A stretch of 64,000 nt of DNA from an uncultured Methanoregulaceae archaeon (GTDB lineage Archaea > Halobacteriota > Methanomicrobia > Methanomicrobiales > Methanospirillaceae). The notes beneath the pieces are model-generated. The model was not told where the DNA came from. It worked only from the letters and a program-made list of their open reading frames with translations, and did not search any database. This document shows positions 9,243 to 22,522 of this stretch, one piece after another. Both the position numbers and the translations under genes were made by a program. The stretch lies in the NCBI GenBank assembly GCA_963717525.1, contig OY970343.1, positions 1,824,001 through 1,888,000 on the forward strand. Direction: 5' to 3'. Every line of letters starts with the position of its first letter. The stretch's first letter is position 1.

Positions 9243-10898
9243 TTAATAGTCGCCCATGCCGGGCATTCCACCCATGCCACCCATGCCGGGGGGCATGCCA
9301 CCGGCACCAGGTGCCGGGCCGGGTGACTTCGAGGAAGCGATCACATCATCAATGCGGAGGATCATAATCGCAGCTTCTGCAGCCGATGAGATTGCCTGGG
9401 TCTTGACACGGAGCGGCTCCACGACGCCGGCTGCCTTCATATCGACGGCTTTTCCTTCGAACACGTTGAGACCGTAGTTCTTCTTGCCCTTCTCATGGGT
9501 TGCGCGGATCTCGACCAGCATGTCAATGGGATCGAGACCGGCGTTCTCTGCAAGGGTCCGCGGGATGATCTCGAGTGCTACAGCAAAGGCCTCGATGGCG
9601 AGCTGTTCCTTGCCACCGACCGTTGCCGCGTACTCGCGGAGCCGGAGCGAGAGCTCGGTCTCGGGTGCGCCGCCACCGGCGACAACCTTCTTGTCCTCGA
9701 CAACGACACCGACAACACGGAGTGCGTCATGGATGGCGCGCTCGAGCTCGTCGACGACGTGCTCAGTGCCACCCTTGACGATGATGGAGACCGCCTTCGG
9801 GTTCTTGCACTGCTCGACAAAGGTCATCTCCTCTCCGGAAACCTTGCGCTCCTCGACAAGGCCGGCATGGCCGAGTTCTTCCTTGCTGATCGCGTCGATG
9901 CTGGAGACGAGGCTGCCACCGGTTGCCCGGGCAAGCTTCTCCATGTCGCTCTTCTTGACACGGCGGACGGCGAATATACCGGCCTTTGCAAGGTAGTGCT
10001 GTGCGATATCGTCGATGCCCTTCTGGCAGAACACTACGTTCGCGCCGCTCGCGACAATCTTTTCGACGATATTCTTGACCATGCGCTCCTCTTCATCGAG
10101 GAATGCCTGTAACTGCTCGGGGTGGGTGATGTTGATCTCAGCGTCAACCTCGGTCTTCTTGAACTCGACCGCTGCGTTGAGGAGAAGGATCTTTGCGTTG
10201 GTGACCTTCTTTGGCATGGCCGGGTGCACGCGCTCCTTGTCAACGAGAACTCCTTCAACAATCTCGGAGTCCTCGATGCTGCCGCCGGTCTTCTTTTCGA
10301 CCTTGATGTTATCGATGTCGACGGTCCCGTCAGCGTCGGTAACCATGGTGACAGCCCTGACAACGAGGTCGCAGAGCTTGTCCTTGCTCGCCTCAGCGCC
10401 CTTGCCGGTCATCGCGGTGCCGGCGATGTTCTTCAAGAGCGCCTTGTCGGTTGATTTGACATCGAACGCGATGTCCTTGAGGAGCGCCTGCGCCTTCTCT
10501 GCTGCCATTCGGTAGCCGTGGGCGATAACCGTCGGGTGGACGTCCTGTTCGAGAAGTGACTCGGCCTTCTTTAAAAGTTCCCCGCCAATGACGACTGCGG
10601 TTGTGGTCCCGTCGCCGACCTCATCGTCCTGGGTCTTTGCGACTTCGACCATCATCTTTGCGGCCGGGTGCTCGATGTCCATTTCCTTTAAGATGGTGAC
10701 ACCATCGTTTGTGATCACGACATCGCCAATGGTATCGACAAGCATCTTGTCCATACCCTTGGGGCCGAGCGTGGTTCTGACTGCACTGGCAACAGCCATT
10801 GCAGCGGTGATGTTCATACCCTGGGCATCACGGCCGCGGGTGCGGTTGGTGCCTTCCTTAAGAATGAGAATTGGTTGTCCTCCAAGTTGTTGCGACAT
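9243..10898 (-). CDS. thsA: Thermosome (group II chaperonin) subunit
   Basis: [19 protein letters not shown]-repeat tail. Confidence 0.97.
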
Positions 10899-10940: not shown

Positions 10941-10953
10941 TATATAAATATTC
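10941..10953 (-). promoter_or_regulatory. TATA box (TTTATATA) and BRE region of the thermosome gene
   Basis: Minus strand reads GAATATTTATATA ~45 nt upstream of the ATG at 10898. Confidence 0.6.
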
Positions 10954-11005
10954 TCTTAAAAGGTTCTGATAGGATGAAGGGACTTTTACCAAAAACCAAA
11001 CCTCC

Positions 11006-11025
11006 GATAGATCGCGGGACTTTTT
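11006..11025. repeat. Left subterminal 20-bp inverted repeat of the transposon
   Basis: GATAGATCGCGGGACTTTTT is the perfect reverse complement of 14861-14880; both lie 44 bp inside their element end. Confidence 0.92.
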
Positions 11026-11078
11026 GGAAGAAAGATAAAAGACCCGGAATAAACAAGAGAGCATATAGTGAAAAACCT

Positions 11079-11990
11079 ATGACTGTTTGTATTGCAGCAA
11101 TATGTGATTCGATATCTCCATCGCCAAAAATTGTATTTGCATCAGATCGATTAGTTTCTGCCGGTGTAAGTTTTGAAAGCGGGGTTTCAAAAAGTCAGTA
11201 TTTAACCCCCAATGCATGGATTATGTCATCTTCGAACGATGCATTGGCAAGTGATGGTATCATATTAAAAATTCAAAAAATACTTGCGGACTCACCAGAC
11301 GCAGGTAAACAAATCCCAATAGAACAAATCGCAAATATGATCTCCCAAGAATGTAAAAACAAAATACGTTTAGAGAGGGAAAACCAAGTATTTTCGCAAT
11401 TTGGAATAAACGAAAGTGATTTTGCCGAAAAATCAATTAAAATATCCACTTTGGTTGTTGCGGATATTTTAAATCGATTGCGCGAATTTAAATATCAATT
11501 TGAGGTTGAGTTTTTAGTTATCGGGTTTGATTTTATACCAGCAAAGAATCTATACATGCCTCATATTTATTCGATAAACGAACTTGGAGATATTCTCCCC
11601 ACGGATCATTTAGGATTTGCTACAAGCGGGAGTGGGAAGTATTTGGCGTTTCCAGAAATTACTAAGTATGCATATCAACCGAACACTCCACTAAGCGAAG
11701 CGGTTTTAAGAGTGTACTGGTCTAAAAAAATTGCCGAACGAGTTGGCGGGGTCGGGAAAGAGACAGATTTGTTAATACTTCATGCAATAAAGGATGGAGT
11801 TAAATTATGGATTGCCCCGCCAGAAACCAAAAAAATGTTGGATGATAAACTCGAAGCCGTTCGGAAAGATGAAATAAAAATCTCTCTTGAGGTTATAACA
11901 GAATTGAATAATACTGTTTTCAATCCGGTAAATCAGCAGAATATACAACAAGAGGTAAAAGAGACAAAGACGATTTCGGAAAAATCTTAA
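11079..11990 (+). CDS. Proteasome beta/Ntn-hydrolase-like protein (transposon passenger)
   Basis: M-T-VCIAA start, FASDR, downstream Lys, FATSGSG, GGVG; 303 aa from ATG 11079. Confidence 0.72.
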   Translation: MTVCIAAICDSISPSPKIVFASDRLVSAGVSFESGVSKSQYLTPNAWIMSSSNDALASDGIILKIQKILADSPDAGKQIPIEQIANMISQECKNKIRLERENQVFSQFGINESDFAEKSIKISTLVVADILNRLREFKYQFEVEFLVIGFDFIPAKNLYMPHIYSINELGDILPTDHLGFATSGSGKYLAFPEITKYAYQPNTPLSEAVLRVYWSKKIAERVGGVGKETDLLILHAIKDGVKLWIAPPETKKMLDDKLEAVRKDEIKISLEVITELNNTVFNPVNQQNIQQEVKETKTISEKS

Positions 11991-12170: not shown

Positions 12171-12283
12171 AGTTTACCCTTATGTTCACCCACATATTTA
12201 TTCTTTTGTATGCCAATTTGTTTACCCACAAATTATAAATACTTATAAGGAGATTATTATGTAGGTAAACAAGTAGGTGAACA
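12171..12283. promoter_or_regulatory. Divergent promoter with five 12-bp WGTTYACCYWYA repeats
   Basis: Copies at 12171, 12183 and 12219 (forward) and 12260 and 12272 (inverted) around TTATAAA at 12233-12239. Confidence 0.7.
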
Positions 12284-13473
12284 TGATGCAACAACTAACT
12301 AACCCAAGAGAATTAAGAGGCCTTGCGATTCTCTCGCAGCCGAACACGATCATCCAGACTGGCAAGAACGAGTGGGATGTCCGATCACAGAGCAAGGATG
12401 CATACTATCAAGTTACACGGAAGTTCCAGGATCGCCACGCCCAAATGCGCGGTCAGGCAATGTGGACATGCTCATGCCCCGATTTCCAGACGAGAAACAT
12501 GCCCTGTAAACACATTTTTTCTGTCCAATTCTCGTTAAAACTTGGCGGAGATGTGGAGAAAGAAAGCGCGGCACAACACATCGAAACGGCAGAGCCAAAG
12601 ATCCTTTGCCCCGCTTGCAAGAGTGAGAGTGTTGTAAAACGCGGCATCCGTAAAACACAGTTTGGAGAGGTTCAGAGATTCGGATGCACTGACTGCGGCC
12701 ATAGATTTGTTGTCGATAAGGGATTCTGCCGGATGAAGTTTAACCCAAAGATCGTCACGCAGACGCTTGATCTTTACTTCAAGGGGCTTTCACAGAGAAA
12801 GATCGCGGACCACTTAAAGCAGTTTGAAAGTGTTAGCGTAGCCCAACCCACGATCCTGAGCTGGATCAAGAAATACCTGAAACTTCTTGCAAAGTATTCC
12901 GAGAAATACAAAGCAGAAGTCGGCAAGATTTGGCACTCTGATGAAACGACGGTGTTCATCAAGAAAGAGGGGGAGAAAAAGTATTACCAATGGATCTGGA
13001 ATGTCATGGATGCAAAGACACGCTATCTCCTTGCCTGTCAGATTACCGAGACGCGATTTGTTAAGGATGCGCGCATCCCGCTAAAGAAGGCAAAAAGTGT
13101 CACCAATGTTAGACCAGACGCAATTGTTACCGACGGACTACAAGCATACAAGGAAGCCGTTAAAACCGAGTTCTTTGACCACGAGGCATTCATCCAGAAC
13201 CCCCATATTCGCCTGAAAGACTTTGAGACCAAACCTAACAACAATATCCTTGAACGGTTAAACGGAACATTCCGTGAGAGAACAAAAGTTGTACGGAGTT
13301 TTGACAGTGGACTTGGTGCAGCAGAATTTGCAGCGGGAATGCAGACGTATTATAATTATATCAGACCTCATCAAGGCATTGGTGGGATGGTGCCGGCTCA
13401 GATGGCAAACATCCCGATCAATCTGATGGGGAATAGATGGGAAACGATGATTGAGTTGGCAATTAGAACCTGA
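12283..13473 (+). CDS. IS6-family DDE transposase with N-terminal SWIM and Zn-ribbon domains
   Basis: CSC...CKH (SWIM); CPAC...CTDC; HTH GLSQRKIA; WHSDET, IVTDG, NNILERLN catalytic motifs. Confidence 0.92.
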   Translation: MMQQLTNPRELRGLAILSQPNTIIQTGKNEWDVRSQSKDAYYQVTRKFQDRHAQMRGQAMWTCSCPDFQTRNMPCKHIFSVQFSLKLGGDVEKESAAQHIETAEPKILCPACKSESVVKRGIRKTQFGEVQRFGCTDCGHRFVVDKGFCRMKFNPKIVTQTLDLYFKGLSQRKIADHLKQFESVSVAQPTILSWIKKYLKLLAKYSEKYKAEVGKIWHSDETTVFIKKEGEKKYYQWIWNVMDAKTRYLLACQITETRFVKDARIPLKKAKSVTNVRPDAIVTDGLQAYKEAVKTEFFDHEAFIQNPHIRLKDFETKPNNNILERLNGTFRERTKVVRSFDSGLGAAEFAAGMQTYYNYIRPHQGIGGMVPAQMANIPINLMGNRWETMIELAIRT

Positions 13474-13794: not shown

Positions 13795-14748
13795 CTAAAA
13801 CACTCCTTTTAACAAAAGAATTTGTAATATTGCAACGAGTGAAATGGTATAACTTATAATAAATAGTTGCCTATGCGGAATTTCATATTCGTCTCTTAAT
13901 AATGAGTAATAAAAATAAGCAAACCCCATTAAAACTATTAAAAATTCAACCCCAAAAGTACAATCAAAAGCAAGAGTATCTTGACCTAAAAAAGATAACA
14001 ATCCATTATGCAAAATAAAAAGTGAAAATATGAGAAATATCAGGGGGATTAAGGAAATTGCTGCAATTGCGGGAGTAACTTCTGCGTAATAAGTAAACCA
14101 CATTTTGGGGTCTTTCAAAGAATCCCAAGTTTGGGTTAAATAATCAAAATCTTTAGAATCAATCAAAAAATTATATGTTAATCTTCCTTCATTTCCTTTT
14201 ACAAATGGTTTCCCGCAATCGATTTGCTTAACAATTTCTTTATTGTCGATTAAGTACGAACCATACCCCATTTCGTATAATTTCCTTTGTTCTGGAAAAT
14301 AGAACGGGGTCTCCAACGCATTGTCCCAACACAATTTCCATCCTTTGGGGAAAGTGAGATAAAATTCCGGTTGAAGTTTACCCCCAATTTCTATAATTGA
14401 AGTTTTTTTAGGAATAAAAAAATCAGATAACTTGTCGATAGGATCTCCATTCTCGATAGCCGGATCAATCAAAGTGTACTCAACGCTTATTTTGACATGC
14501 TTGAACGAGGTTGTATTGGGAGCATCTGGGAAATCATCTAATGGATCTAAATTTAACAAAATATCAAAATAGTTCCCGTTTGTGTATTCTAAAAACCCAA
14601 TCTCTTTAGGCGTTCCGTTCCTCGTAATGACTTTTAATCCAATAAAATTTAAATTTTTTAATCCTGCGAGCATTGTAGGGTCATTTGCGTAAATATCCAT
14701 TACCTGTCGAATTTTTCTCAGCTGCGGTGGGGAAATATACCTCTTCAA
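13795..14748 (-). CDS. Hypothetical protein with ~3 C-terminal TM helices (transposon passenger)
   Basis: 317-aa ORF in AT-rich DNA; GGTGG RBS before TTG; hydrophobic C-terminus. Confidence 0.75.
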   Translation of the reverse strand: MKRYISPPQLRKIRQVMDIYANDPTMLAGLKNLNFIGLKVITRNGTPKEIGFLEYTNGNYFDILLNLDPLDDFPDAPNTTSFKHVKISVEYTLIDPAIENGDPIDKLSDFFIPKKTSIIEIGGKLQPEFYLTFPKGWKLCWDNALETPFYFPEQRKLYEMGYGSYLIDNKEIVKQIDCGKPFVKGNEGRLTYNFLIDSKDFDYLTQTWDSLKDPKMWFTYYAEVTPAIAAISLIPLIFLIFSLFILHNGLLSFLGQDTLAFDCTFGVEFLIVLMGFAYFYYSLLRDEYEIPHRQLFIISYTISLVAILQILLLKGVF

Positions 14749-14860
14749 TATGCCACCAAGTTTGTTGTATCTCTATAGACACAATAACTTAGACGATAAT
14801 GTTTATCATAAGAGTTTCGTTTTTATTATAATCCCAATATGTGCAAATCCCAGTCTCTCT

Positions 14861-14880
14861 AAAAAGTCCCGCGATCTATC
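14861..14880. repeat. Right subterminal 20-bp inverted repeat of the transposon
   Basis: AAAAAGTCCCGCGATCTATC; partner of 11006-11025. Confidence 0.92.
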
Positions 14881-14999
14881 ACCTCTTTCCAAAAGTCCCG
14901 AAGTCCCTTAAACCTATCAGAACCTCTTAAAAGGTTCTGTTGCGTTGTCGGGAGATCCGTGCTTTTGGATCTCGCTGGTGCGTTGCGGGAGATGAGAGA

Positions 15000-15320
15000 T
15001 CAAGAGATCGAGATACCAACCGCTCCCATCAGCAATCCCAATCCCAGAACAACCAATGCAACAAGTAACAACCCCAGCAACGGGTTTATCTGCATAAGGT
15101 ACTCCATACCCCACACCATAGTAAGAAGCGGTATGATGAAGAGCAAAAGTCCCGCTATGACGAGTTTTATGATTAAGGGCTTTGTGCTCTCTTTTTTTTC
15201 AGGCGATATAACCGGGGGCTTTTCTTTGACAGGTTTGGGGGCCGGGTTTAAGAGGGCTCCGCATCTTCCGCAAAATTTGTTTGGATCCGGGTTACTATAT
15301 CCACATTTTGGACAGAGCAT
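15000..15320 (-). CDS. Zinc-ribbon membrane protein
   Basis: CPKCG...FCGRCG followed by two TM segments. Confidence 0.75.
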   Translation of the reverse strand: MLCPKCGYSNPDPNKFCGRCGALLNPAPKPVKEKPPVISPEKKESTKPLIIKLVIAGLLLFIIPLLTMVWGMEYLMQINPLLGLLLVALVVLGLGLLMGAVGISIS

Positions 15321-15448
15321 AAATGATTTCTCTCTCGATCCTTTAGGTAATATAGATTTTGATTCAGGGTTCTGACAGGTTCGCGGTTGGTAAAGAGCGT
15401 AGCATATTTCACGCTTTGCTTACCAAATCCGGAACAAACCTCTAAAAA

Positions 15449-16373
15449 TCAGTCGCCCAGCATGTCGAGGAGTTCAAAGCCGTCCGCGATATGGTGGAAG
15501 CGATCCTCACCGATCACAAGCGTCCGCCCGATCTTTTTTTCGTGATGGTAATCAGTGATGATGCACATCGCATGCTTCTTTGCGATCTTCGAGAGATTGC
15601 TGATAAGGGCGGCACGCTTGACCACCTTCTGCGCCGGGCCGTAACCAGTGAGGATCGTGTGCTTGTCAAACGTGAGAAGGGCTTGGAACGGTGCGCCCCG
15701 GAGTGTCTGGAGCTGTATCCCGAGCTGCTCAAAAAAATCGATGGGGATGCCCGGACCCTGCCTTTTCTTTGGTTCCTCCTGCCCGGATTCTGCAGGTTTG
15801 CGACGGACAATATCGATGGACTCAACCACTCCCGTATTGAAGTACTCCTCGATACGGATCGCGACATCGAGCGTCAGTACCCATGCCGCTTTCGTATTTG
15901 CTGATCGTGCGCCGGGAGACCCCGAGCACCTGCCCCATGTCACCAAGCGACATGCTCCGCCGTTCGCGGAGCTCCCGGAGGGCGTTGCCATTGATGTTCA
16001 CGTACAGTCCGCCGGGAGAGGCGTACACGAGCGGTGGGATCTTCTCCACAAAGTAATCGTACAGCGTTGCGATGCTGATCGCGTAGATGCCATACCGGAC
16101 ATAGACCGCCCCCCGCTCGAGCTCGGCCTCGCGGGCACGTTCGCCCACGATGAGGGGCACACCACCCAGGTGCTGGGAGATCACGTCAAGATCGAACGCC
16201 GCTTCCTCGCTCACCGAATCGATGTGCGTAACGACTTTGATAACAAGCAGCGTCCCGTTATTGCGTGCGATGAGGTCGAAACTCCTCGGGCGGAGGGTAA
16301 ACTTCTCGGATACCTCAAATCCCGCCGATATCATCACGCTGGTGACCAGCTGGAGCTGGCGATCCTGGGACAT
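15449..16373 (-). CDS. Archaeal Cro/C1-HTH transcriptional regulator (COG1395-like), apparent +1 frameshift at ~15876
   Basis: RPRSFDLIAR, PPLVYASPGGLYV and HTH VSRRTISKYESG continue as TLDVAIRIEEYF in the next frame; span is 3n+1. Confidence 0.82.
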
Positions 16374-16416
16374 GCAGTTACAAATGGATAGAGCGTGCCC
16401 ATATATTAATATAGAC

Positions 16417-17698
16417 ATGCTGATCGGTATTGATGACACGGATTCACCGGCGGGGATGTGTACCACCTATCTCGGCGCGGTGCTCGCCCGGAGGCTGATC
16501 CATGAGCATATGCGGGTCCGCGAGGCCCGCCTCGTCCGGCTCAACCCGAACGTGACGTTCAAGACCCGGGGGAACGCAGCGATTGCTCTCGATGTTGAGG
16601 GAGACCCGGACCGGGCATTCTCGCTTGCGTGCGCCATCGTGGAGGAGCTTGCCGATTTCTCCTGCGAGAAGACCAATCCCGGGGTCGTGGTTGCAGAAAC
16701 GCGTCCCGACCCGGCCTTTTACCGTAAGGCGGTGACGGACTTCTGCGAGATCGAAGAGGCCGTGAATCTCCTTGAGGCGGCGGGCGCCCGGTACCGGGGC
16801 TGGAAGAACCGGCGTGGGCTTATTGGCGCAACCGCGGCTGTTTCAGGCATCTTTCCCGATACAACGTACGAGATTCTCGCGTACCGCGATCCTTCGAGAT
16901 GGGGTACACCCCGGGAGGTGGACAGGGAGAGCCTCTTTGCCGCGGAGGAGGCGACATTCCCACACACGTGGGACACGGTGGATCCTGTAAACCGGGTCGT
17001 GGTCTGCGTACCGCATACTCCGGACCCGGTCCTCTTTGGGATCCGGGGCGAGAGCCCGGCCTGGGTGATGATGGCCCGGTCGCTCATCCAGTCAGAAAAA
17101 CCGGCTGTTGAACAGATCTGGGTGACCAACCAGGGGACCGATGCCCACCTCCTTGCCGGGACGTGCAGCTCCCTGCGCGAAGGGCTCTCGTACCGGGTAC
17201 GTGGCACGGTAACCGGCCGCCCGGAAACCGGACCCGGGGGCCACGTCTCCTTTTCGATCCGGGACAGCGGTGCGGAAGTCCGCTGCATGGCATACGAACC
17301 CACGAAGAACTTCCGGGAGATCATAAGGGCGCTCGTGCCGGGCGATACGATCATTGCAGTCGGGAGTTACAAAAAAGGAAGTATTAACTTAGAGAAGATC
17401 TGCCTTGTCGTTCCGGCCCGGGACATCCGGACTCAGCCCCCGCTCTGCACTGCATGCAACAAACGCATGACGAGCGCCGGCAAAGACAAAGGTTACAAGT
17501 GCCGTAAATGCGGGGCGCACGAAAAAGATCCCGAGGTACAGGAAAGCCCCCGGACGCTCAGTGCCCGGGTGGTACGAAGTGCCGCCGACCGCCCGCAGAC
17601 ATCTCGCAAAACCGCTGTGCCGGGGGGTACCGGAACACCCCTTACCGGGAAGGGTACTGGAAGAATGCCGCCTTCAGGATGGTAATACCCCTCCGTAA
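16417..17698 (+). CDS. tiaS: tRNA(Ile2) agmatinylcytidine synthetase, apparent +1 frameshift near the C-terminus
   Basis: IGIDDTDS..GMCTT, KTRGN, TNQGTD, Zn ribbon; the conserved GWYEVPPTARRHLAKPL tail is in the next frame, ending TAA 17698. Confidence 0.9.
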
Positions 17699-18087: not shown

Positions 18088-18852
18088 TTATGCTACCAGT
18101 TCGGCAACATATTTTTCCCGCTTACTCCACATAAGCGGGAAAACACCATAATTTTCCAGAGCAGTAGGTACTTCTTCCGGGATCCGGCGCTCCTTATCAT
18201 TAAGAATTGCGTATGCTTTCGAATCCGGAGCACGGACATCTTTGGTATCAATCCATGAAAATGATAACATTTCAGCCTGTGCCCGGTTGGGATTGTTGAT
18301 GGTCTGGAGAATTCTTTCAGGCTCCTGCCGGGATTTCGGGATGACAAAATCAAAAAGATGATCATAACCGGATTTACCGGTGAATTTTATTTTCGGAGTG
18401 TACCTTATTTCCGTCTCATCGAGCCAGGCGACAACATCTTCAAAGAATAAACTGGCGACAACAGGTTCTGAGAGATAGAACAGGTCGTTGACTGCGAGCA
18501 TAGCCTGTAAGAGATTGTGCTTTTTCTGCGGGAACGACTTGTCGGTTGTTTTGATGGTCAGGACCCCCCGGTCGTTCTGGACGCCAAAACCTTTGAGTGT
18601 CGTGGACAAAAGCGCCAGACGTTTATCGGTGTCGATCCTGCATCCTGACATCTTCAGATCTTCTAAAATATACCCGTCATCCGTAAGGACATAGCCGCCA
18701 TTACTTTTTTTGACGTAGATCTGCAGGAAATCGTTATGCCGGTCAAGGAACGGCGTTGTTATCTCCACCCATTCGTCAACCTGGCGCAGGCTGATCGATT
18801 CATTGAGCCAGTGGAGATAATCCTGCAACAGCCGCTCGACGTCAGTGATCAT
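18088..18852 (-). CDS. DUF1828/DUF1829-like protein (possible PD-(D/E)XK fold)
   Basis: ITTPFLDRHND, LTDDG and GKSG..H.FDF motifs. Confidence 0.8.
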   Translation of the reverse strand: MITDVERLLQDYLHWLNESISLRQVDEWVEITTPFLDRHNDFLQIYVKKSNGGYVLTDDGYILEDLKMSGCRIDTDKRLALLSTTLKGFGVQNDRGVLTIKTTDKSFPQKKHNLLQAMLAVNDLFYLSEPVVASLFFEDVVAWLDETEIRYTPKIKFTGKSGYDHLFDFVIPKSRQEPERILQTINNPNRAQAEMLSFSWIDTKDVRAPDSKAYAILNDKERRIPEEVPTALENYGVFPLMWSKREKYVAELVA

Positions 18853-19298
18853 TATTCAATTCCTGCAATAATGTTTGGCTCTTTTACAATATTACAATAC
18901 GTCATGAAGTCTTTCAATGTCTGCCACAAATCCGTAAGATCTGAAAACGAATCGGATGCTACAGGATATGCCCATTTGTCTGCATATCCTTCCCGATAGA
19001 GATGAATGTGTGGCCCGCTGATGAATTCATCATCAGGATTTTTGTGGGGTTTGCCGGTAAGATCCAGCCTGACCAGAATTATCATCTGGTGCGCCCGATT
19101 CTGATAGGTTATTTTATTCAGTTCCAGCCTGCTTCTCCATAAATCCAGCACAAAATTATTTCGTTTGTCTTCTGACAGCAACGGGATATTTATAGATGTG
19201 CCGCGACCGGGGAAGTGCCATGTGTCGTCATTGAGCCGGTATTTCGGCATCTGGATCAACGCGTCGGCTTCTTCCTGAGAAATTTCAATGTCAACCAT
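18852..19298 (-). CDS. DUF6978-like protein
   Basis: LVRLD...PHKNPD....GPHIHLYREGY...WAYP; stop overlaps the start of the DUF1828 gene. Confidence 0.75.
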   Translation of the reverse strand: MVDIEISQEEADALIQMPKYRLNDDTWHFPGRGTSINIPLLSEDKRNNFVLDLWRSRLELNKITYQNRAHQMIILVRLDLTGKPHKNPDDEFISGPHIHLYREGYADKWAYPVASDSFSDLTDLWQTLKDFMTYCNIVKEPNIIAGIE

Positions 19299-19420: not shown

Positions 19421-22400
19421 TTATTTCGTCGTTTCCTCCACGACGGCAATCTCATCCACTGTAAGCCCGTAGATCCCGTACACAAGCGAGTCGATCTGCT
19501 TGTCGGTGGAGTCGATCTCCTGCTGGATCAGCCGCTTTTCCTGATCGGTCTTTGCATGGCTCAGGTGTTTGTGCAGATCCAGCATACCGGTCACGAGCGC
19601 AACCATCCGGTCGTGCCGGGCTTTATCATCCGGGTTGTCGAAGTCGATAGTGTAGATGGGGAAATTTTTCAGCACAACGTACGCCGGCATGAAAAAGCCT
19701 GCCTGAAGTTTGGGCAAATTCGTTTCAAATAAGAAGTACGTCAATTTGCTGTTTAAAACACCTAATAAATATTTGTCAGCCTTTGGAATTATGAAACATT
19801 TGTTATTAGCATAGAATTTTGACTCATCCAGCGTAAATTCGGGTTTTTGACAAATCTCAGGATAGATTATTTTTGGTTTTTCAAATTCTTCATAATAATC
19901 AATTGTATCCTGAATTTCATACCATTCGTACAATCCCGGTTTTCGCCCTTTCCAATCCTCCCCTTTCCAATCTTTTGGTCGAGGAGTTAATTTTATTTTA
20001 AATTGCTTAAGATAATTCACGATTGCTGGATATTTTTTTATTTCAACTCCATGTTTGGTGAAAATTAAAAATTTCCCGTCATTTGTTAAGGGTCTGTACC
20101 GTTTAATATCTCTTCCAACTAAGTATGGTTTAATTAAATCTGCAGAGTTTGGATCTTCACTAATCAATTTCTGTTTAATTTTTTCATCAATAACAAATGC
20201 CTCGTTACAACCAGTGACAATTCCCCGGTAAACTTCTCCCATCACATACTCTTCGAGTGGCGTCCCCGCGCTCTTCAGTTTCTTCAGCAGACTCTCCGTC
20301 CGTTTGTCCCCGAGTGTCCAGCCGCCGTCCGTGAGTGTTGCCTGCTCAATCGGGTGGCGGTGCGCCTGCACGTATCCCGCAAGATCCGGGAAGTCAAGCG
20401 TTTCCACCTTGGATATGCAGAATTCTTTTGCCGGCGTGTTGTTCGAGACCCGGATGATGCACGGGTATGTTGTCGCAGCCTTGAAGACCGGCAGGTCGCC
20501 GAAGTCCACGATCTCCTCAATCTGTTTTGACAGGAGGAACTTCCGGAGCGGCTTCCCGTAATTCGCCCGCATCCACTTGTTCGCCACGATGTACGAGAAA
20601 ATGCCACCGGGGCGCAGGAGCGAGATGCCTTTCTCGATGAAATACGCGTACAGGTCAGCGGTTCCCTGGTAGACCGCATAGCGCGACTGGTAGTACTCTT
20701 TCTGATCTTTGATCGATTCCTGCCTGACGTAGGGGGGGTTGCCGATCACTGCATCGAAACCGCCTGCCTTCATCACGAGCGGAAATTCTGCCTGCCAGTC
20801 AAACGCATTGACCCGTTTGCGCTCCTCCATGTTGAACGGGTGCGCCTGCCTGAGATCGAAGTAATCCGGTGCAACGAGCGAGTTGCCGCACCTGATGTTA
20901 TGGTGCAGGGAGGGCAGCGCCCGCTCCGCAAAGAGCTTCAGTTGCTTCGAGACATTCTCCTCGCTCTCTTCCTCAAGTACTTTCAGGAGAAGCGAGAGTT
21001 TCGTCACTTCGACTGCCTGTGGATCGATATCCACGCCGTAGATATTGTGCAGGAGGATGCGCTTGCGTTCCGCTGTGGTCAGCCGCCAGTCGCTCCGCAT
21101 CTTCGAGGGGTCGCTTGTCCCGACCTTATAGATCGGCAATTCGTATGCGCCCTCTTTTTTTGCTTTGCCGGAGGCGACCGGATCCGGCAGGAGCGCCTGA
21201 ACTTCCGGAGCGGCAGCCGTCCGGCCCTTGAGCACCGGCACGAGATGCTCGATATACCAGTCGCGGTGCCGGTCGAGCAGGAACTGGTAGGCACCGAGCA
21301 GGAACGAACCGGATCCGCACGCGGGATCCACGATGGTGAGCTTTGCCACTTCCCGGGGGGTCTTCCCTTTCACCAGTTCGCCCACGGTCTTTTTGACAAT
21401 ATAGTCCACGATATACGCAGGCGTGTAGTAGACACCGCCGGCCTTGCGCACCGCCGGCTTGTCCTCCACATCGGCCCGGTGGGATGCAGAGAGTCTGATC
21501 ACCTTCCCGAGGAACTGCTCGTATACCTGCCCGAGGATCTCGGCTGGGATCACCGAGAACTCGTACGGGCTCGGATAATAGAGCCGGTTGATGATCGCCT
21601 TTAAGACCGAATCGTCGATGACAAGGGATGGCGTGAGCGTATCGGGAATCTCGTCACGCCCGGCCTCCTCTGCAAAATGGAAAAGCCCGGAGTTATACTT
21701 GTCATCAGCGAGCCGGAACAGGTCACAGACCCGGGCATACACCGCTTCAGTATGGGACAGGGCATGCAGGGTCTCGTAATGCTCGATCCCCCGGTCCTCG
21801 CAGATACGCAAAAAAATGATCCGGTCTATAATCAGCTGGACGGCAGTGTTCACCTCTTCCTGCGAAAGCCCGATATTGCGCAATGCGATGTTACGGGCAA
21901 GCAGCAGCCTCCAGTTCTCGATATCCTCCAGGAATTTTTCATCGACGCCGGCAGTCCCGTGTTTCTCACCATTCGTTGCAACGTATTTGTCAAACGAACC
22001 TTTCTGGATACCTTCCGGGGAAAAAACCGCAGCGATCCGATCCCATCGTTTCTCGTATTCCGTGTAGGGGAAATAGGCAATCCGTGCTGTTGCAGCCGTA
22101 TCCTCTTTTCGGAGGGGAACATTGCAGTCATAGACTGCGAACTCCTCGAAGTTTGTCAGGATGGAAAGTTTCAACCCGGCATTCCATGCGTAGCGACGCA
22201 GCTGGAGCGCCGCATCCAGATCATCTTTAAGGGCAACGGCAGGCTTTTTTGCCTCGCAGATGAACTTCCGGGCCCCGCCAACCCGGAACGAGTAATCGAT
22301 ATGTTTCGTCTGCCCACGGATGCGGATGGGATCTTCATGGGCCACCTCTTTGTAGGCTTCCGACCAGCTCTTGTTATTATCTACGTCCCAGCCAAGAGCA

Positions 22401-22522
22401 CGGAAGAAAGGATCGAGGAATTCACGCCGCAATTCAGTCTCGTTCTTCTGTCCCTTGTGATAGACCGGACGGTTGAACTCATACCGCTGGACAAGATCAA
22501 GAACCGCCTGTGGTGCCGGCAT
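19421..22522 (-). CDS. Type IIG (Eco57I/TaqI-C-like) restriction-modification enzyme
   Basis: N-terminal nuclease ID...EAKK; MTase motifs GVYYTP, DPACGSG, GNPPY; C-terminal specificity domain. Confidence 0.92.
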   Translation of the reverse strand: MPAPQAVLDLVQRYEFNRPVYHKGQKNETELRREFLDPFFRALGWDVDNNKSWSEAYKEVAHEDPIRIRGQTKHIDYSFRVGGARKFICEAKKPAVALKDDLDAALQLRRYAWNAGLKLSILTNFEEFAVYDCNVPLRKEDTAATARIAYFPYTEYEKRWDRIAAVFSPEGIQKGSFDKYVATNGEKHGTAGVDEKFLEDIENWRLLLARNIALRNIGLSQEEVNTAVQLIIDRIIFLRICEDRGIEHYETLHALSHTEAVYARVCDLFRLADDKYNSGLFHFAEEAGRDEIPDTLTPSLVIDDSVLKAIINRLYYPSPYEFSVIPAEILGQVYEQFLGKVIRLSASHRADVEDKPAVRKAGGVYYTPAYIVDYIVKKTVGELVKGKTPREVAKLTIVDPACGSGSFLLGAYQFLLDRHRDWYIEHLVPVLKGRTAAAPEVQALLPDPVASGKAKKEGAYELPIYKVGTSDPSKMRSDWRLTTAERKRILLHNIYGVDIDPQAVEVTKLSLLLKVLEEESEENVSKQLKLFAERALPSLHHNIRCGNSLVAPDYFDLRQAHPFNMEERKRVNAFDWQAEFPLVMKAGGFDAVIGNPPYVRQESIKDQKEYYQSRYAVYQGTADLYAYFIEKGISLLRPGGIFSYIVANKWMRANYGKPLRKFLLSKQIEEIVDFGDLPVFKAATTYPCIIRVSNNTPAKEFCISKVETLDFPDLAGYVQAHRHPIEQATLTDGGWTLGDKRTESLLKKLKSAGTPLEEYVMGEVYRGIVTGCNEAFVIDEKIKQKLISEDPNSADLIKPYLVGRDIKRYRPLTNDGKFLIFTKHGVEIKKYPAIVNYLKQFKIKLTPRPKDWKGEDWKGRKPGLYEWYEIQDTIDYYEEFEKPKIIYPEICQKPEFTLDESKFYANNKCFIIPKADKYLLGVLNSKLTYFLFETNLPKLQAGFFMPAYVVLKNFPIYTIDFDNPDDKARHDRMVALVTGMLDLHKHLSHAKTDQEKRLIQQEIDSTDKQIDSLVYGIYGLTVDEIAVVEETTK

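Follow-up and report, generated by a model that had tools for sequence, protein, structure and literature searches.

The gene at 11079-11990 of the window, i.e., the whole stretch of 64,000 nucleotides that was analyzed, encodes a divergent protein with the predicted alpha-beta-beta-alpha fold of the proteasome-beta-type Ntn hydrolases and is carried by an IS6-like transposon inserted in front of the host thermosome gene (Table 1). Judged by the published description alone, the encoded protein very likely belongs to the PHI family. The favored reading, to which a probability of about 45% is given, is that of a stand-alone threonine peptidase of narrow specificity, used in virus or element conflict or in stress, with a short active and a long blocked form. 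PHI has already been described, as a group of uncharacterized proteasome homologues; the mobile context, the altered second triad, the probable use of two starts and the homing of the carrier to promoters were not found in the open-licence literature.

Table 1. Coordinates of the IS6-like element, its genes and its insertion site in the window.
Feature	Position	Strand	Remarks
Host thermosome (chaperonin) gene	9243..10898	-	back to back with the protease gene; orthologue L205 matches Cpn60_TCP1
Host thermosome TATA box	10941..10948	-	13 bp from the element tip
Target duplication, left copy	10954..10961	+	8 bp; identical right copy 14925-14932; single at empty sites
Left terminal inverted repeat	10962..11031	+	inner repeats, IS6-type tip; 22/24 first bases match the right end
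Open in-frame basic leader	10974..11078	+	35 codons, from ATG in the left end of the element; putatively translated
Span of the conserved A-rich motif and the ribosome-binding-like motif	11035..11071	+	A-rich motif at -44 of the Met-Thr start, probably a TATA-like box (putative promoter)
Ribosome-binding-like motif	11065-11071	+	upstream of the Met-Thr start
Proteasome-beta-like gene, short form	11079..11990	+	303 aa, PHI architecture; Thr2/Asp23/Lys38 = Thr1/Asp17/Lys33
IS6-like DDE transposase	12283..13473	+	396 aa; DDE_Tnp_IS240 E 3.4e-13; SWIM E 9.4e-5; zinc ribbon
Second passenger, membrane-type	13795..14700	-	hydrophobic C-terminus; no Pfam, PADLOC or Atlas family
Right terminal inverted repeat	14855..14924	-	matches the left end
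Likely older non-autonomous element, same site	14933..15440	.	508 bp; age and far boundary putative

The motifs named in the initial annotation are all present in the translation of the ORF from ATG 11079, i.e., the N-terminus M-T-V-C-I-A-A of the short form, S22-D23-R24, K38, T-S-G-S-G and G-G-V-G. The single sequence matched no proteasome model when searched against Pfam, NCBIfam and the PDB sequences. PF00227 was matched by 22 of 44 aligned homologues, and a profile of the homologues matched proteasome beta chains (E 3.6e-8). The structure predicted from an alignment of 150 sequences (pLDDT 94.9) was compared, as had been proposed, with proteasome beta, HslV, Anbu, BPH and connectase and has a proteasome-type Ntn fold. 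The top match was proteasome beta (Foldseek E 1.8e-11; VIA Z 24.6, rmsd 2.1, 188 aligned residues), followed by Anbu (Z 22.6, 215 residues), HslV (18.0), BPH (16.9) and connectase (10.9, 137 residues). Both the helical insertion and the helical C-terminal tail expected from the sequence were recovered in the model, the former as additional helices (residues ~105-136) that follow H2 and precede the next strand, at the pore-loop site, the latter as a long helix at 248-281. Helices H1/H2 are present (H55-71, H81-103), strands 25-27 and 31-33 are joined directly without an S3/S4 insertion, and H3 and H4 are linked by 10 residues (H187-194 to H205-219), a region in which the family has no gap in the profile alignment against host beta subunits. 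For the 338-aa form described below, a single-sequence model made without an alignment reached a pLDDT of 34, too low for any reading of the structure. The host genome has its own, separate proteasome beta gene.

PHI was described by Fuchs, Alva and Lupas in 2021 from 53 sequences, with WP_012956871.1 as its representative (PMC8665760). As far as that description goes, the core fold, Thr1/Asp17/Lys33, the closeness to proteasome subunits, the occurrence in bacteria and archaea, the long insertion after H1/H2, the lack of an H3/H4 insertion and the long C-terminal helix are shared. The protein studied here differs in belonging to a family of at least 1,714 clusters, in its carriage by a transposon and in its likely leader-bearing second form. 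The profile search returned 5,423 clusters at E 0.001, 4,066 at 1e-10 and 1,714 (at 50% identity) at E ≤ 1e-30, and the two weaker tiers may include true proteasome subunits. In the available text of Fuchs et al., no genomic context hinting at function is given for any of the 22 new families, and propeptides are restricted to proteasome beta and HslV (PMC8665760). No paper linking PHI to defence was found in the open-licence literature. PMI-3 and PMI-4 were excluded by the short H3-H4 link without insertion.

The 20S proteasome beta subunit (PF00227, TIGR03634) has the fold, the first triad and the G-x-G motif in common with the protein, which differs by the lack of an adjacent alpha partner or AAA+ gene and of a Gly(-1) propeptide, by the replacement of Asp166 and Ser169 and by the helical insertion at the pore-loop site. 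Anbu (PMC5666114) shares, besides its high Z, the long H5 helix (here H248-281) and the Met-Thr start; Thr1 of Anbu binds inhibitors, yet no standard substrate is cut according to the available part of that study. The insertion, which is unlisted for Anbu in the available text of Fuchs et al. (2021), and the mobility are peculiar to the protein in this comparison. Connectase was excluded. It shares a proteasome-like fold in a methanogen and a Met-Thr start, but it lacks H1/H2 and has a two-helix S3/S4 insertion (PMC7980362), whereas the opposite holds for the protein studied here, and the Z values are 10.9 and 24.6. Thus, of the initial description, a divergent, mobile proteasome-beta homologue with a threonine nucleophile and a usable Met-Thr start stands, but the likeness to connectase does not.

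In databases the gene is called from ATG 10974, which results in a form of 338 aa. The protein had been described as free of a propeptide, and a true start further upstream had been named as an observation that would speak against an exposed Thr. The Met-Thr start is retained, as it has a ribosome site of its own, but use of an upstream in-frame start at ATG 10974 is also likely, and the leader is a trait of the family. In loci picked by N-terminal motifs, nearly all of which start with ATG for this reason, an SD-like word is located at -16..-4 in 48 of 77 cases, compared to 15, 5 and 9 in control windows. ATAAA stands at exactly -44 of the Met-Thr start in 12 of the 15 loci inspected. The leaders of 79 database proteins, a set biased by the gene callers (95 proteins are called without a leader), have a median length of 29 residues, are basic in 65 cases (mean net charge +3.7) and have a Pro two residues before Thr1 in 42. 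Position -1 is occupied by M, V or L without exception, and V or L corresponds to a GTG or TTG codon in 5/5 loci with inspected DNA. A classical propeptide was rejected, since Gly(-1) is missing and residue -1 is always a start codon.

Stop codons at -90..-15 are depleted in frame 0, with 41 in frame versus 117 and 104 out of frame in 65 loci (<85% identity), 32 versus 74 and 69 in 45 loci (50% identity) and 22 versus 44 and 40 in 27 loci (40% identity; p 0.003). At -150..-90 there is no frame bias, and the control starts (transposase, thermosome, 186 genome-wide) have no in-frame stop bias upstream. An open frame arising as a by-product of purine-rich promoter or element-end sequence, with the short form as the only product, is somewhat unlikely, since composition should spare all three frames and only frame 0 is spared, also at <40% identity. 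In the archaeal clade the leader does overlap the purine-rich element end, which is stop-poor by composition, and in the clade of the window it is built from terminal-repeat sequence; the starts of the element's own transposase, however, lack such a bias. Of 11 listed loci that are borne by an element, 10 have the inner repeat in frame, at four different distances, and in L309, which belongs to an unrelated branch, in-frame ATGs are again found in the element tip. Outside of this list, the inner repeat of L109 is out of frame. In L102, a DNA motif that its relatives have upstream of the gene is retained, but not in frame. The conservation of the -44 motif and the ribosome site before Met-Thr would also fit a short form only, as would the existence of leaderless members: the frame is closed by a stop within 10 codons upstream in 15 of 77 loci, and a clade located at dnaJ or hsp20 has no leader.

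The ribosome site of the Met-Thr start, together with the family-wide open leader, makes it likely that a long blocked and a short active form would both be made. Thr1 is unlikely to be freed in the long form, because Gly(-1) is missing. The lambda holin gene is a known case of two starts whose products counteract each other. For proteasome homologues, no paper on a dual start was found in the open-licence literature. In Pyrococcus, archaeal TATA boxes are described to fire in both directions, with starts ~49 bp apart (PMC6640164), and a transcript from backward firing of the thermosome TATA box would, by estimate, start ~7 nt before ATG 10974.

The carriage of the gene as transposon cargo, which had been proposed from the sequence, was confirmed. 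The IS6-like element comprises 3,963 bp between inverted ends at 10962 and 14924, is flanked by a perfect 8-bp duplication, and its site is empty in 19 of 30 loci of the genus. A duplication of 8 bp is the length typical of IS6. The protease gene lies in a low-GC island (GC 0.36 vs. 0.59 for the thermosome gene). The gene content suggests that the host is a methanogen of Methanomicrobiales type. With IS6/IS26, the element shares a GG tip with a CTG motif, terminal inverted repeats, the DDE_IS240 domain and the carriage of passengers, for which one member is named in the available text of the reviews (PMC7986276, PMC6807381). It differs by its transposase of 396 aa with N-terminal SWIM and zinc-ribbon domains (IS6 transposases mostly have 220-250 aa), by long ends with inner repeats, by many passengers and by the insertion at a fixed distance from TATA boxes. 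Archaeal and long members are treated separately in the reviews, so the element, with its 396-aa SWIM and zinc-ribbon transposase, is called IS6-like.

A joint function with the co-carried membrane protein, as initially suggested, could not be supported. The second passenger has 13 database matches including itself and only sub-0.9 matches in the Atlas, and a tblastn search of all other fetched loci gave no match, so it is no fixed partner of the protease gene. In L309, a cassette of 1,116 bp with a perfect duplication, no ORF was called besides the protease gene, and a transposase is absent. With PADLOC, neither the protease nor the membrane protein had a match, nor did the zinc-ribbon membrane ORF 15000-15320, which is located in the 508-bp element; this element has a decayed far end and a duplication with one mismatch at 15441-15448.

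Further observations were made in the window. At 10947-10971, loose contig ends (runs X10, X14) represent other strains or species of the same samples, with different element ends at the promoter. At position 15875 one base is absent in contigs of runs X10 and X11 (contigs of 4 of 17 runs examined), and the HTH ORF 15822-16466 encodes 214 aa compared to an ORF of 336 aa in G025, so that an extra base in the window assembly is likely. A second lower-GC stretch holds a gene pair (18088-19298) and a large restriction-methylase-type ORF (19421-22522); by eye, the pair resembles DUF1828/DUF6978 (PDC-M24) cargo in L284.

The element family inserts 13 bp upstream of heat-shock-type TATA boxes, namely those of the thermosome, cdc48, hsp20 and a heat-shock-type regulator. 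At the thermosome promoter an element end was detected in 11 of 30 loci of the genus (6 with a strict pattern, 11 with a looser one; the window's included and one cut by a contig end), and the remaining 19 were empty. At all 11 occupied sites the distance between element end and TATA box is exactly 13 bp, and the target words in front of the ends differ. An end pattern gave 87 distinct ends, four of them from a locus selected because of its protease gene. The start of a TATA-type word is found 14 nt outside of 16 ends and 16 nt outside of 11 (mostly the same box), any other offset occurring at most twice. An AT-rich box is present there in 29 ends, 15 of which precede the thermosome, hsp20, cdc48 or an ArsR-type regulator, a putative HSR1/Phr orthologue. 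The word CTAA(C/A) follows in 11 of these 29 ends versus 2 of 58 other ends and matches the HSR1 operator of Archaeoglobus (PMC9133787). The distance to the TATA box is fixed and that to the operator varies by 2 nt, which suggests an anchoring on TBP/TFB. Across the own genome, the signal for this spacing was weak with a narrow TATA word list (4 of 36 ends versus 8 of 244 controls), many of the ends stemming from miniature elements of 79-92 bp or being far ends. No paper on a TATA-spaced archaeal transposon was found in the open-licence literature. The fixed-distance insertion resembles the targeting of yeast Ty3 by TFIIIB.

Around 11 elements were seen whole in 20 regions fetched by end position, and three of them contain the protease gene. 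The docked elements with the protease are located at thermosome, cdc48 and hsp20 promoters. The co-cargo of the element family is mostly of defence type and contains type II and IIG restriction-modification systems, HNH, GmrSD with HEPN, Fic, TIR, NYN, Panacea and PDC-M24, with most proteins in the cargo scans (63 and 58 proteins) lacking a match. Several other elements of this family were noted. A second complete one in the same genome (L281:1244-7568, G000:C1:2070743-2077067), with a perfect 8-bp duplication, is located 13 bp from the TATA box of a second thermosome gene; its cargo consists of an HNH nuclease together with a restriction-modification pair of type II. In G451, an element at the thermosome promoter carries a different proteasome-like protein (L289:8607-9416, minus strand; PF00227 E 6.3e-7), which is unmatched by the family profile. 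The miniature two-end elements of 79-92 bp (G000:C1:509280-509371, 1302082-1302160, 1306709-1306800, 1708305-1708396) have no clear duplication or TATA spacing.

For the neighbourhood analysis of homologues, which the initial annotation had called for, the best 80 of 151 relatives were taken in the metagenome scan, and 100 loci with a family match were kept and reduced to 80 at 85% identity. Transposases of three families recur, being located within 1.5 kb of the gene in 23 of the 80 loci (9 window-like, 9 IS1595 and 5 IS1-like). Among the loci with 1.5 kb on both sides the proportion is 12/33, and the 57 loci having no transposase within 1.5 kb include many short contigs. In the Pfam scans of 261 neighbour ORFs, no other neighbour recurred across distant loci, a regular AAA+ partner was missing, and the transglutaminase and ATP-grasp partners of Anbu operons were not seen. 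The family was found in bacteria and archaea, also in phage-type contexts, and accounts for 6 of 43 viral pattern matches; with a distant member as query, collections of plasmid and phage records gave no match. Carriers are 3 of 37 genomes of the genus, 8 of 151 genomes of the family and 19 of 401 genomes of the phylum.

In a quick, unrooted tree of the protease family (84 rows), the gene of the window falls into a clade of 15 rows (support 98) that are mostly located beside this transposase or its ends, and a second branch (L287) was taken up separately by the element family. In total, the protease family was taken up by the same element family in at least three branches. Several side observations concern these relatives. 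One viral contig contains two tandem divergent family members (L006:7815-9935). In one branch (P0035, P0038; L056, L095) the C-terminus is extended considerably; P0035 and P0038 contain an MJ0042-type zinc finger, and several loci of the branch adjoin IS1595 transposases. Split or truncated gene copies (L110:311-1358, L100:1923-2810, L036:12125-12394) are consistent with cargo turnover. In the vicinity of the gene, a small basic protein was encountered repeatedly (L004:10894-11220, L071:3554-3829, L118:2784-3065, L130:1351-1656, L062:1063-1314), three times together with IS1-like transposases and without a Pfam match in those scanned.

Five genomes of another family contain a near-identical gene, which is divergent from dnaJ in three and located right behind hsp20 in two of them; no transposase or element end was seen at these loci. 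This clade, which also lacks the leader, favors a role in proteostasis. In L030, a gene of the protease family follows cdc48. These loci would be explained by an ATP-independent stress protease that clears damaged proteins and that is placed under or near the host heat-shock regulon by the docking of the element, and the bidirectional TATA boxes cited above (PMC6640164) point in the same direction. This explanation is nevertheless unlikely, as the docking is independent of the cargo, with most docked elements carrying restriction- or toxin-type genes, and the dnaJ/hsp20 cases represent a single clade. Six of eight promoter-docked protease genes are located at the promoter-side end and read away from it, an orientation that is not beyond chance. 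Furthermore, the Pfam scans revealed no heat-shock genes next to bacterial members, a proteasome beta of its own is already present in the host, and the second triad is lost.

The protease could also serve the element itself by cutting the transposase, the transposase-DNA adduct, or a repressor or transcription factors at the landing site, and the basic leader would then bring it to the DNA. The recurrent location beside transposases of three related DDE families, often directly adjacent, and the uptake of at least three branches by one element family are in line with such a helper, as is a sample of the family in which element ends were found in 6 of 7 other carriers versus 31 of 143 non-carriers (Fisher p 0.0009, with kin not independent). 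Nevertheless, this function is considered quite improbable, given that the gene is present in only 3 of the ~11 complete elements, that it occurs in phage-type contexts and without any element, and that the L309 cassette carries it without a transposase.

With regard to the active site, Thr1 and Lys33 are conserved in 150/150 and Asp17 in 149/150 rows of the alignment. The second proteasome triad Ser129/Asp166/Ser169 is lost in the family. When the family profile was aligned with 17 beta subunits of host type (97.7%; low local confidence around the second triad), S185, V222 and V225 fell on Ser129, Asp166 and Ser169. The Ser129 column contains S in only 63 of 150 rows, the Asp166 column A in 94, V in 29 and S in 14, and the Ser169 column V in 143. 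Ser129 and Asp166 belong to the second triad of proteasome beta, and Ala at position 166 blocks autolysis and catalysis (Huber et al., 2016, PMC4792962). Two family-specific residues, Lys216 (150/150) and Glu220 (142/150), may be stand-ins for the lost ones. The loss of the second triad argues for a narrow specificity or an unusual chemistry. A sequence-specific, connectase-like transpeptidase or deconjugase that forms a stable amide on Thr1 instead of hydrolyzing is very improbable: although the Thr1 amine would be protonated differently once Asp166 and Ser169 are lost (PMC4792962) and connectase demonstrates that a proteasome-like fold can avoid hydrolysis (PMC7980362), the connectase architecture is absent with proteasome beta and Anbu far closer, no conserved substrate or ubiquitin-like gene was found nearby in the neighbour scans, and Glu220 and Lys216 may replace the lost residues.

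In the favored reading of a stand-alone threonine peptidase, translation from the Met-Thr start and removal of Met, as in Anbu, would free Thr1. Translation from the upstream start would result in a basic leader ending in Pro-Met without Gly(-1), so that Thr1 would stay blocked, and this long form could dampen or localize the active short form. Lacking Asp166 and Ser169, the peptidase would hardly be a processive degrader and would more likely cut or acylate one or a few targets. The gene would spread by benefiting or addicting the host and would not be needed for transposition. The role in defence or quality control considered in the initial annotation may apply, defence being suggested by the association with the other cargo of the element family.

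A further reading, which is quite doubtful, is a self-regulating protease switch made from one gene and wired to the heat-shock response of the host. Here, the transposon would dock in divergent orientation at a heat-shock promoter that is repressed. Transcripts fired backwards from the host TATA box would begin shortly ahead of the ATG in the element tip and give the long, Thr-blocked basic form, and the gene's own promoter would give the short active form. Both forms would co-assemble like alpha and beta subunits, with their ratio setting the protease on or off in stress or infection.

The family matching PHI is far larger than in the 2021 census and moves as transposon cargo among defence genes. 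If true, the production of both a blocked and an active form by a single gene would be reminiscent of the division of the proteasome into alpha and beta subunits. The carrier, a transposon of archaea, keeps a constant distance to the TATA box on insertion and leaves the promoter unbroken, and it may provide a tool for safe-site insertion in methanogens.
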